This document shows positions 59,632 to 63,118 of a stretch of DNA of 63,118 bases, one piece after another (position 1 is the first letter of the stretch; each line of letters opens with the position of its first letter). A program made the position numbers and the translations under genes. The stretch lies in NCBI GenBank assembly GCA_043806755.1, contig JAZDGS010000013.1:1-63118 (forward strand), read 5' to 3'. The notes beneath the pieces were generated by a model. The model did not search any database. It had not been told where the DNA came from and saw only the letters and a list, made by a program, of their open reading frames with translations. This DNA comes from Pseudomonadota bacterium (GTDB taxonomy: Bacteria > Desulfobacterota > Desulfobacteria > Desulfobacterales > UBA2156).

Positions 59632-59750
59632 CTTGCCAAAACGGCCGAAAATACCCTTTAAGGCGAAAACTGTATCATGAAAACAACATTCTCAACAATG
59701 CCTAAAACGGCAATGGTGTCGGTCCATAGCCGTAAGTTGCAGTTTTAATG
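59632..59750. repeat. copy A of a ~118-bp diverged direct repeat
   Basis: Shares four perfectly conserved blocks with copy B: CTTGCCAAAACG, AAAACTGTATCAT, ACATTCTCAACAAT, TCGGTCCATAGCCG. Confidence 0.8.
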
Positions 59751-60046
59751 AAGCCAGATTCAACGGATTTATGAAACGGACCCCGTTTATCCCCAGAATT
59801 TCAACTTATGAAAAAAGGCCGAGGTTGAACCGGTGATCTATGTTCAAATCGGCCGAAATTTCAACAAAATGCCCATTAAATTCCGATTGACAGCGCATTC
59901 TCATTCCGATAATTAAAACCCGTCGGTCATGAGAATTGCATACCCCCATATCTTGGGTCGCATATGATGCCAATATACAATTCATGTTTTCGCTTAATCC
60001 GCTTGGAAAAAAGCGACTTCTTATCATTTCATTAGGAGAAAAATTC

Positions 60047-61198
60047 GTGAAAACATCCAGAACGCGGGCCATTCTCTTCTGTGTTTCATCTTTTTTTGTC
60101 CTGGCTTTGGGGATCCGGACAGCCGCCGGATGGATGGCGGATTTCTACAACGGCATTCCGCTCCAGGCAAAAAAGAACATTTTCTTCGACGAATTCAAAG
60201 ACAACGCCAATGACTGGAAGTTCCTGACCGAGGGCGCGACCTTGGCCGGCCGGATCGAAAACGGCTGCCTTTACTGGGAGAGCAAAGACAAGTCGGCCTA
60301 CTTCGCTCAGAGGGAAATTGCCATCGATCAAAACGGAAATTTCGAAATCGAAGCGAAAATCAAATACGTCAAAGGGGGGAACCCGGCCACTGGATTCGGG
60401 TTGATTTGGGGTAAGAAGGAAGGCCGTTATTTTATTTTCCAGATCAACGCCAACGGTTCTTATTCCATAGATAAATACGAAGGCGGATGGCAGGCCATCA
60501 AGGATTGGACACGTTCCCCCGTCTTCAACACCCATGATTTTAACAAGCTGACCCTGAGGAAGATGGGCGGCGTCTTCACCTTTTTCCTCAATGAGGAACT
60601 CGTCTGCCGAACGCCCTTCATCCCATTCTTCGGCCCGCTGACCGGCGTCCTCACACCTTCCTATGCAACCATCCTGGTCGATGAATTCCGCGTCTCCGCA
60701 ATCGATAAAACATCAGCTCAAGCCGCGCGAGCGCCGGCAGAAGGCGAAGTTTTCGGCGGCTGGGGGGAGGGCGAAGTGGGAGATTGGATCGAGTATGACT
60801 ATCTTGTCTCGGGATTTGGTGAATACCTGAATTACTCGGCCGTCATGGAAGTCATCGCCGCGAACGACAAGGCTCTGACCATCAAAAAAAGGATCATCGA
60901 CGACAAATTCAAATCCAAATCAACGGAGAAGACCCAGCCGCGCTTCATTAAAAAAGAAGATTTTGAAAAATCTTTAGCGCAATACGGCCGGAAAGAAAAC
61001 ACGGCCATGGTGGAGGTCTCGGGCAAGAAACTCTTGTGTGATGTCTATAAGAAAACGATTAAAACAGAAGACGGAAGCCAAGTTAGCACCTGGACCCATC
61101 TTTGCTGGTATGTCCCCAACTGGCTGGTCCGTATCGTAGTGAACGGGACTGTGGCTTACGATCTCAAATCGTTCAAGAGCAAGCAGCTCAGCAACTAG
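60047..61198 (+). CDS. secreted hypothetical protein, N-terminal lectin/LamG-like (DUF1080-like) guess
   Basis: ORF 59936-61198. GTG at 60047 with AGGAG 8 nt upstream gives a signal peptide MKTSRTRAILFCVSSFFVLALG. The domain guess comes only from a beta-sandwich-like sequence pattern. Confidence 0.5.
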   Translation: MKTSRTRAILFCVSSFFVLALGIRTAAGWMADFYNGIPLQAKKNIFFDEFKDNANDWKFLTEGATLAGRIENGCLYWESKDKSAYFAQREIAIDQNGNFEIEAKIKYVKGGNPATGFGLIWGKKEGRYFIFQINANGSYSIDKYEGGWQAIKDWTRSPVFNTHDFNKLTLRKMGGVFTFFLNEELVCRTPFIPFFGPLTGVLTPSYATILVDEFRVSAIDKTSAQAARAPAEGEVFGGWGEGEVGDWIEYDYLVSGFGEYLNYSAVMEVIAANDKALTIKKRIIDDKFKSKSTEKTQPRFIKKEDFEKSLAQYGRKENTAMVEVSGKKLLCDVYKKTIKTEDGSQVSTWTHLCWYVPNWLVRIVVNGTVAYDLKSFKSKQLSN

Positions 61199-61243: not shown

Positions 61244-61513
61244 TCAGGTCCTTTTTTTCCAGCTGAAAGGCGACCTGAGCCGGGTTTCGACCCAGCGGCG
61301 GTCGATCCTCAAGTGATACTGGCTGTGTTCCATTGAACTTCCGGGATCATGATCGAGCGCCTTCAGATAGCTGGAGAGCGTCTCATCACGCCGGCCCAGG
61401 AGATCCAGGAGATGCCCTCTCCAGGTCCAAGCAGCGAAGAGGAAGATCGGGGAGGGATTCCCCGGCGACTGTTTTGTCGAAGGCATAGTTATGTGCTCTT
61501 TATGCTTCGCCAT
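61244..61513 (-). CDS. TPR-like fragment / hypothetical (possibly a gene remnant)
   Basis: 89 aa containing a single TPR-like unit (AWTWRGHLLDLLGRRDETLSSYLKALDHDPG). Overlaps the upstream gene by 14 nt. Confidence 0.3.
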   Translation of the reverse strand: MAKHKEHITMPSTKQSPGNPSPIFLFAAWTWRGHLLDLLGRRDETLSSYLKALDHDPGSSMEHSQYHLRIDRRWVETRLRSPFSWKKRT

Positions 61514-61907
61514 TTATGAGCAGACCAAAGAACTGGTTTTTCTCTGGATAATACTTCAGGTTAAAGAAACAAGTTCCTCCATCGAGCACGAAAACTATCT
61601 GTTTGTTCAATTTCCACCGTTTGTCATTAATACAGAAAGCATTTACAAAAACGATCTTCTTTCCGTTTTCTTCTTGGCCCTGGTATTGGAAAGTATAGGT
61701 TTTCCATTCTCGGAGTCTGCGACCATCGATCTTGACTTGATCTCTCAAAAACGACTCGATCTGTTCTTTGATTCTTGAGATTGTTTCGGTGTTTGGGACC
61801 CAACTACCTCCCTCAACCATAACCCAACGATTTTCAAGTTCAGCGTTTGCGCCGAAAACGAAGCTGAGCGCTAATGCAACCAAGAATGTTTGGGTGGCCA
61901 GTTTCAT
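61500..61907 (-). CDS. small secreted hypothetical protein
   Basis: 135 aa with signal peptide (FLVALALSFVFGANA). No motif recognised. Confidence 0.5.
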   Translation of the reverse strand: MKLATQTFLVALALSFVFGANAELENRWVMVEGGSWVPNTETISRIKEQIESFLRDQVKIDGRRLREWKTYTFQYQGQEENGKKIVFVNAFCINDKRWKLNKQIVFVLDGGTCFFNLKYYPEKNQFFGLLINGEA

Positions 61908-62034: not shown

Positions 62035-62062
62035 ATTATATAGAGTCAATAAAACTTGCCAA
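62035..62062 (-). promoter_or_regulatory. candidate sigma70 promoter reading toward the 135-aa gene
   Basis: On the minus strand: TTGGCA (62062-62057), 16 nt, TATAAT (62040-62035). The -35 lies in the first conserved block of repeat B. Confidence 0.4.
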
Positions 62063-62171
62063 AACGACCAGAATTTCCCCTTATAATCAAAACTGTATCA
62101 TAAAAACGACATTCTCAACAATACAGAAAATCCGGAATTATATCGGTCCATAGCCGGAAACTTCAATTTCA
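62055..62171. repeat. copy B of the ~118-bp diverged direct repeat
   Basis: Same orientation and same four conserved blocks as copy A (59632-59750). Confidence 0.8.
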
Positions 62172-62244: not shown

Positions 62245-62305
62245 TGAAAACGGATTTCTCAGGGGCGCGCGGTCTTTGCGCGTCCCTTGAAGAAAAATGT
62301 TATGC
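62245..62305 (-). mobile_element. attC-like imperfect palindrome at the 3' end of the GNAT gene
   Basis: Minus strand: GCATAAC (its TAA is the GNAT stop), then ATTTTTC..GGGACGCGC-AAAGACC-GCGCGCCCC..GAGAAAT, then GTTTTCA. Long bulged stem, 61 bp. Confidence 0.45.
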
Positions 62306-62815
62306 GCTGTCATCATTTCTCAATTCGAAATATTGTTCGTTTACTTCAGTACCCCATTGGATGCCGCTTTGTTGTTTAATGAGCTTAAACCCTACATCTT
62401 CGTATAAGTGTCTCGCTGCATTAAGCCCCTCGAAGGTCCAGAGATATATCTTTTTATAGCCTTTGCTTTTGCAAAAATGGATCGCTCTATTTATTAGTTG
62501 CCTACCCACTCCTTTTCCTCTCAAAGCATCGGATATAATGAACCATCGTAGATGGGCGCCTTCATTTGCGGCATGAATACCATCTATAATAACCGAACCT
62601 TCTGCACGACCATTCAAAGTGGCTATCCAAATTTCATCGCTTTTGTTATCATATCGCCTTAAAAACTCCGAAAGCTCGCTTGCAACTTTTGCCTCAAAAT
62701 AGAGCCCAAACCTCCAATGTCTGTTGTAGTAAGTACCATGAAGTTCAGAAATTCGACCAATTGAACCGGGGATATATCCTCTTTCTATCTTAATTTCTGG
62801 CACAATATCCATCAT
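62300..62815 (-). CDS. GNAT-family N-acetyltransferase
   Basis: 171 aa. Acetyl-CoA motif A LRGKGVGRQLINRAI and the YLWTFEGLNAARHLYEDVGF region. Confidence 0.85.
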   Translation of the reverse strand: MMDIVPEIKIERGYIPGSIGRISELHGTYYNRHWRFGLYFEAKVASELSEFLRRYDNKSDEIWIATLNGRAEGSVIIDGIHAANEGAHLRWFIISDALRGKGVGRQLINRAIHFCKSKGYKKIYLWTFEGLNAARHLYEDVGFKLIKQQSGIQWGTEVNEQYFELRNDDSA

Positions 62816-62827
62816 TAATTAATACCC

Positions 62828-62896
62828 CGCATAACGCCGGCCGTAACCGGTGCGCGGGCGCTTTTCCCGCGCATCCTTGTCCAGCCCGATGTTAGG
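62828..62896 (-). mobile_element. attC-like recombination site upstream of the GNAT gene
   Basis: Minus strand: GCCTAAC (canonical RYYYAAC), then a bulged stem with apex TGCGCGGG-AAAAGCG-CCCGCGCA, then GTTATGC, 12 nt before the GNAT ATG. 69 bp. Confidence 0.5.
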
Positions 62897-63118
62897 CGTC
62901 TTATTCATCTCAAGAAATTCGAAATTGAATCATAGGCCGTATCAAAATTGGAGTTAGTTATTTGAATAGGTTCGCCAAACTGCACTGTTATTCTGGAGGA
63001 TGGTATCGGTCACTTTCGTCGATCCCAATTCTGGATCTCAACGGAAGGTGAGCTTTCGAATCTCATTGGTAAAATCGGAACATTGCTTTGCATTGAAATA
63101 TGAAGAGCTCCTTTCTTC

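Follow-up and report, generated by a model that had tools for sequence, protein, structure and literature searches.

A GNAT gene cassette flanked by attC-type sites at the probable distal end of a chromosomal integron array in an environmental anaerobe

Introduction

The systems closest to the locus described here are the attC sites (59-base elements) of integron gene cassettes, the integrase-less attC clusters termed CALINs and the arrays of sedentary chromosomal integrons. Among the first, attCaadA7 has published extrahelical bases at positions 16 and 23 and VCR2 and the oxa2 attC carry theirs at positions 16, 20 and 24, with the limits of each cassette being set by the G/TT crossover rule (PMC5027507). 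CALINs are defined as two or more same-strand attC sites spaced by less than 4 kb in the absence of an integron integrase in the neighbourhood (Cury et al. 2016, PMC4889954); they are common, and most of them have no intI pseudogene in their vicinity (PMC4889954).

Here we analyse a 63,118-nt window that corresponds to a whole contig and consists, for most of its length, of core genes such as those for SecA, ClpA, IleS, GuaA and indolepyruvate ferredoxin oxidoreductase. Its last stretch, positions 62245-63118 read on the minus strand, very probably represents the distal end of a chromosomal integron cassette array, made up of the tail of a DUF374 cassette followed by a complete, promoterless cassette that encodes a GNAT acetyltransferase. 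The element is of a known type, an ordinary integron cassette array or CALIN, found in an environmental anaerobe. A sequence-only reading of the same DNA had proposed that the GNAT gene is an integron-type cassette bounded by attC-like sites, and both the covariance-model matches and the homology breakpoints reported below agree with it.

Results

Architecture of the contig end

All elements of the array read along the minus strand. First comes the 3' portion of an ORF of the DUF374 family (PF04028), which is recognized by its translation and by its homologue P0121, occupies positions 62905..63118 and is cut by the contig end. It is followed by the attC of the DUF374 cassette (62829-62897; covariance-model matches, homologous attC in locus L090), which opens with the R'' box GCCTAAC at 62897-62891, as had been noted, and closes with the R' box GTTATGC, both read directly from the letters. 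The latter box had been noticed at 62834-62828, which is one base off: it is present at 62835-62829, and the spacer that separates it from the downstream ATG measures 13 nt instead of 12. The 171-aa GNAT ORF (Pfam PF00583) extends from the ATG at 62815 to 62300 and runs into the R'' box GCATAAC (62305-62299), whose TAA serves as the stop codon of the gene. A second imperfect palindrome, which closes with the R' box GTTTTCA at 62251-62245, constitutes the attC of the GNAT cassette and the last attC of the array (62245-62305; covariance-model matches, bottom-strand fold).

With the inferred crossover of the upstream attC placed between G62835 and T62834, the GNAT gene cassette spans 584 nt (62251..62834, minus) and comprises TTATGC, the 13-nt leader (which includes GGGG), the ORF and the attC as far as the G of its R' box. 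Cleavage by an integrase at the G/TT of R' would explain why the first bases of the cassette, TTATGC, exactly complement its own R'' (GCATAAC). In keeping with this geometry, which the earlier reading had recognized, the 7-mers GTTATGC (62835-62829) and GCATAAC (62305-62299) are exact reverse complements, so that the complementarity between the R'' of the GNAT cassette and its own R' half is still perfect. Each of the two 7-mers occurs only 2-4 times per 63 kb, and the chance of finding such a 7-mer within about 30 nt of an ATG is roughly 0.002. AAC and GTT are present in both sites, and the degenerate positions of the R''/R' consensus (RYYYAAC / GTTRRRY) fit in part: the upstream R' (GTTATGC) has a T at a consensus-purine position, and the downstream R' (GTTTTCA) deviates from GTTRRRY. 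The surroundings are indeed AT-richer, as suspected from the letters, with a GC content of 0.36-0.43 across 61.5-63.1 kb vs about 0.50 in the rest of the window.

Covariance models single out the two attC sites

Three attC covariance models were built from other genomes only, leaving the window out. R1 was seeded with the aadA1 attC, verified by its presence at 100% identity in plasmid R100 and in about 2000 further plasmids, and with nine sites that passed a strict TAAC…GTTA single-hairpin filter in the GNAT-relative loci of other genomes; R2 (15 sites) and R3 (30 sites) were grown from further sites of the loci recovered by R1. A first hairpin filter, which combined YAAC...GTTR with folding energy, was dropped as too noisy in GC-rich loci.

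Searched with R1 at E<=10 on both strands, the window yields exactly two matches, 62245-62305 and 62829-62897, both on the minus strand and with the boundaries put forward in the sequence-only reading, and these sites are also the top two matches of all three models, on the strand of the gene. The downstream site scores 19.5 bits with R1, 30.5 bits with R2 (E 4.4e-5) and 38.2 bits with R3 (E 3.5e-7); the upstream site scores 18.7, 19.4 (E 0.029) and 20.3 bits (E 0.014), respectively, the E-values being rough as the models are home-made. Both sites are thus significant in a covariance-model search of the kind by which the cassette proposal was to be judged. With filters off, the third-best R3 match in the window (16.5 bits) falls inside a coding region near 3.3 kb, and no other match lies below E 0.1. 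In the strict TAAC...GTTA hairpin filter, the upstream site (62829-62897) is the sole passing site of the window. Rfam, searched in both gathering and E-value modes, gave no relevant match in the window and returned only chance hits to mir-724 and HOTAIR.

Specificity was gauged on the surroundings of relatives of a YeiH-like gene (L091-L170), unrelated loci that add up to 0.82 Mb and gave one match with both strands included. These loci lack shared synteny and contain neither an array nor an integrase, which makes them unfit for a presence/absence comparison, and they were used as a negative control for the model instead. Their single match (L115 6054-6113, minus; 25 bits) may be an isolated attC or a false positive. 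In the GNAT loci, by comparison, 28 of the 30 model matches lie on the strand of the gene and are arranged in arrays. The 30-site alignment has 80.5% paired cells vs 31-43% in slid controls and a covariation score of 0.406 vs at most 0.114, with structure being conserved without sequence, as is typical of attC. One locus, L171 (1-5000), carries the GNAT orthologue P0012 among small same-strand genes that include DUF302 and a MazE/PIN toxin-antitoxin pair; the attC model found no site in this array-like run, and it may thus miss some attC types.

Folding of the two sites

Both sites adopt an imperfect, bulged hairpin fold with a GC-rich apex, as had been described from the sequence, and in both of them the R'' arm exceeds the R' arm by 2 nt. 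Folded with DNA parameters, the bottom strand of the downstream site (62245-62305) exposes extrahelical A16 and T23, and that of the aadA1 attC exposes G16 and T23; many environmental sites have extrahelical bases at 16/17 and 23/24. For the downstream site, the bottom strand is also the more stable one (-14.9 vs -11.1 kcal/mol for the top strand), which is the usual direction for attC. At the upstream site (62829-62897), the minimum-energy fold of the bottom strand is branched, with no clean single hairpin, and the top-strand fold has bulges at 20-21 and 24. The expectation that bottom-strand folding would reveal conserved extrahelical bases was accordingly borne out at the downstream site, at the positions seen in aadA1. 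Shuffle z-scores of the two palindromes are modest (-1.8 to -3.5). A terminator scan picked up neither site, a T run being absent, and neither attC sequence is repeated elsewhere in the window.

The GNAT gene and its relatives

The GNAT ORF matches Pfam Acetyltransf_1 (PF00583) at 1.2e-15; it has no match at cut-off in NCBIfam, and a comparison with the PDB returned generic GNAT proteins only. Its homologues number 2511 at E<=1e-40, the closest being 84% identical, and relatives with 60-83% identity occur in MAGs labelled Desulfobacterales, Spirochaetota, Atribacterota, Rokubacteria, Nitrospirota, Chloroflexota and Gemmatimonadota, among others.

In the closest GNAT loci, the sequence common with the window begins at (G)TTATGC and ends with GCGCATAAC (GCATAAC), outside of which all loci differ. 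Homology among orthologues thus begins at TTATGC. The earlier argument that a cassette carries its own R' half at the 5' end holds. Matches to the attC model lie directly upstream and/or downstream of the GNAT gene in L001, L003, L005, L007, L028 and L173. In L173, home of the closest orthologue (84%), the gene is placed between two attC sites in a 3.7-kb stretch with six of them, whose cargo includes a HigB/HTH toxin-antitoxin, a methyltransferase and other small cassettes; nine attC sites precede the GNAT gene in L022, and attC arrays are also found in L005 and L002. The comparison with related genomes hence came out in favour of the cassette proposal: the closest orthologues occur in differing contexts and are flanked by attC, as opposed to occupying a single, conserved and palindrome-free place.

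Near its end (62305-62330, minus), the window gene has a 1-nt deletion, reading AATGA-TGA where all close orthologues have AATGAATGA. As a result, three codons are added and the stop moves from a TGA to the TAA inside R''.

Some relatives of the family are no longer cassettes. Two loci with 81%-identical GNAT homologues, L081 and L089, have no detectable attC; L004 and L081 (10001-10510) keep a TTATGCGGA remnant with the attC absent, and the context of L081 is conserved across >20 contigs. Loss of the cassette state also applies to L010, L014, L019 and L027. In more distant Desulfobacteraceae copies (68-75% identical), the upstream region is conserved, which suggests that they are fixed chromosomal versions of the family.

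The upstream cassette carries a DUF374 gene

Of the upstream ORF, the window contains the last 70 codons (63117-62908), followed by a stop codon at 62907-62905 (minus). Its sole database homologue is P0121, which is 83% identical and carries PF04028 (DUF374). An assignment to PlsC was rejected, as a Pfam search on the fragment gave no confirmation and the homologue belongs to DUF374. In L090, the metagenome contig that carries P0121, the DUF374 ORF is likewise followed by a homologous attC, with about 88% identity to the window through both ORF and attC and divergence immediately past the GTTAT of R'. Since homology ends at the R' crossover, the upstream attC belongs to the DUF374 cassette; by the same breakpoint, the GNAT cassette stands as a separate unit attached at the canonical crossover. 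Scanned for exact copies of the upstream attC, the metagenome collection yielded none.

The window copy of the DUF374 ORF has an in-frame TGA at 63012-63010 (minus), at a codon that is TGG (Trp) in P0121/L090. Judging from this substitution, the gene is apparently inactivated and would be a pseudogene, unless the TGA is a sequencing error. As for L090, the sequence that follows its DUF374 attC repeats that preceding the DUF374 ORF region (196-240 and 1083-1127), which points to a tandem or circularised cassette; this contig closes with Illumina adapter sequence at 1128-1143 (AGATCGGAAGAGCACA).

Extent of the array and search for an integrase

No attC was found between 57 kb and 62.2 kb (R3, filters off), so that the attC of the GNAT cassette marks the distal end of the array. 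The downstream site had been suspected of being the decayed end of an array on account of its poor R' (GTTTTCA). It is the last detectable attC and its R' is indeed poor, but it outscores the upstream site; moreover, the poor R' is not a matter of decay, because the six bases that follow the G are part of the adjoining downstream sequence.

A tblastn search with IntI1 detected no integrase gene or pseudogene in the 63-kb window, as the sequence-only reading had also concluded, and no integron integrase lies within 10 kb of any fetched GNAT homologue. The only integrase candidates in the loci, an XerD-like gene (L047) and an IS91-linked recombinase (L028), were rejected. The window breaks off within the DUF374 cassette, at the end where intI, attI and Pc are expected; as the cassette genes face away from the contig end, these elements, if existing, would lie beyond 63118. 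The contig formally meets the definition of a CALIN, with a pair of minus-strand attC sites spaced by 524 nt and no intI. Since it ends inside the array, a complete integron and a CALIN would look the same on this contig.

Between the array and the YeiH-like transporter gene lies an AT-rich accessory stretch that contains a 135-aa ORF with a signal-peptide-like N-terminus (61500-61907, minus) and a 420-aa ORF (59936-61198, plus). Neither belongs to a Pfam or NCBIfam family or has relatives in any fetched locus. These two ORFs and a TPR-like ORF are bracketed by a direct repeat of about 105 nt (62055-62159 and 59632-59735), the copies of which are 78% identical, 2423 nt apart and each located upstream of a minus-strand gene. 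A near-consensus promoter-like site, TTGGCA-16-TATAAT (62062-62035), overlaps copy 1. No other copies of the repeat were found in the window or the fetched loci, and it has neither an Rfam match nor a convincing conserved fold.

attC bodies and ORF similarity in the GNAT family

Comparison of GNAT cassettes from five other loci (L005 1095-1736, L007 2307-2945, L001 5317-5958, L002 10001-10616 and L173 2929-3570) indicates that the type of attC does not track ORF similarity. The ORFs of L005 and L007 are 97% identical at the nucleotide level up to R'', past which the attC sequences are unrelated, their 57% identity being that of background. The L005 attC is of the 131-nt type found in L001 and L173 (89% and 84% identical), despite the ORFs of the latter two being only 89% identical to that of L005; L002, whose ORF is 92-93% identical to those of L001 and L173, has a third attC type, and the 61-nt attC of the window cassette is a fourth. 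The family thus includes at least four attC body types, of 61, about 105, about 127 and 131 nt, and the 61-nt attC of the window resembles that of another cassette (L173 655-715) more than it does the attC of any orthologue. The breakpoint between ORF and attC maps to a stretch formed by the final, invariant 45 nt or so of the ORF together with R''.

One reading of this pattern, which we regard as unlikely, is that the exchangeable unit of the GNAT family would be TTATGC-ORF-GCATAAC, with the attC body not being co-inherited and some process re-pairing ORFs with attC at or near R''. The mismatched attC bodies could possibly stem from homologous recombination in the last roughly 45 nt plus R'', from site-specific exchange at R'' or from chimeric metagenome assembly, several of the MAGs coming from one study. 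Were re-pairing of ORFs and attC true, it would bear on the unsolved question of how cassettes acquire attC; near-identical ORFs with unrelated attC bodies, if confirmed, would be relevant to cassette origin.

Discussion

As judged from sequence, the contig end shows attC-type sequence and structure, cassette boundaries and recurrence of the same units in other arrays. By the established mechanism of integrons, the bottom strand of each attC (the plus strand of the window) would fold into an imperfect hairpin, whose extrahelical bases, together with the R and L boxes, would be recognized by an integron integrase. Cleavage would take place in the AAC triplet, corresponding to the G/TT of R' on the top strand, and the cassette would leave as a circle and re-insert at attI. 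Because the cassette has only a short leader, expression of the GNAT gene would rely on an upstream promoter.

That the palindromes are ordinary intergenic hairpins, such as intrinsic terminators or REP-like repeats, which resemble attC by accident, is very improbable. Such an origin would agree with their position directly 3' of ORFs, their GC-rich stems, shuffle z-scores of just -1.8 to -3.5 and the lack of an Rfam match, but the terminator scan misses both of them, no T run follows and neither sequence recurs in the window; terminators would also leave unexplained the AAC/GTT boxes, the 16/23 bulges, the strand-specific model matches and the homology breakpoints that fall exactly at R boxes in other genomes. 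Chance coincidence of the inverted 7-mers and the hairpins has a practically negligible probability: although 7-nt motifs are short and their consensus is loose, the model E-values (3.5e-7 and 0.014 over the whole window) and the 7-mer placement probability of about 0.002 speak against it, and the boundaries are reproduced independently in >6 other genomes.

More serious, albeit doubtful, is the possibility that the array is a fossil, be it a CALIN remnant in an integrase-free genome or a set of decayed sites, in which case the cassettes would be immobile and the hairpins would act at most as transcript ends. The premature TGA in the DUF374 gene, the weakness of the upstream attC (about 20 bits) and its poor bottom-strand fold fit such a state, as do the lack of an integrase in 63 kb, the frequency of CALINs, most of them devoid of a nearby intI pseudogene (PMC4889954), and the existence of GNAT family members (L004/L081) that have clearly lost their attC while keeping the TTATGCGGA remnant. 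Against it, the GNAT attC is high-scoring and canonical in shape (38 bits; extrahelical 16 and 23), the GNAT gene retains an intact ORF, perfect complementarity persists between its R'' and own R' half, and the contig stops inside the array, so that an integrase may be located just past its end.

Read as the distal end of a chromosomal cassette array, the locus places integron cassettes on the chromosome of an anaerobe and marks the distal boundary of their array. It adds to the environmental cassette pool a GNAT family that extends from Desulfobacterota MAGs to Spirochaetota, Rokubacteria and Atribacterota bins. The array also explains why the assembly breaks here and gives annotators reason to search another contig of the same genome for intI.

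Comparison with known systems

As in known attC sites (aadA1/aadA7, oxa2, VCR2), both sites of the window have an R'' that ends in AAC and an R' that begins with GTT, and form an imperfect hairpin, here of 61-69 nt, directly 3' of a promoterless ORF. The GNAT site further agrees with the attC of aadA1/aadA7 in that its R''/L'' arm carries extra bases, which fall at positions 16 and 23, and with known attC in the higher stability of its bottom strand and in the complementarity of the cassette 5' end to its own R''. It differs from aadA1 in the identity of extrahelical base 16, which is an A instead of a G, and from known attC in its R' (GTTTTCA); the upstream site also departs from these in its irregular internal loops. 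Unlike those of clinical class 1 cassettes, the window sites are of a GC-apex type (…GGACGCG-AAAAG-CGC…) common to the environmental sites used.

The locus has in common with CALINs (PMC4889954) a pair of same-strand attC sites separated by 524 nt, the lack of intI in 63 kb, a chromosomal setting and cassettes other than those for antibiotic resistance, but the cluster abuts that end of the contig beyond which intI would be expected, and absence of the integrase holds for the contig alone. With respect to sedentary chromosomal integrons, such as the Vibrio superintegron, the window shows two attC sites only, and no integrase, attI or Pc promoter is seen. It nonetheless resembles these integrons and the environmental arrays of L022 and L173 in being chromosomal, in its small one-way cassettes of accessory or unknown function and in having two attC sites of similar type; environmental arrays with an orthologous GNAT cassette carry toxin-antitoxin cassettes as well.
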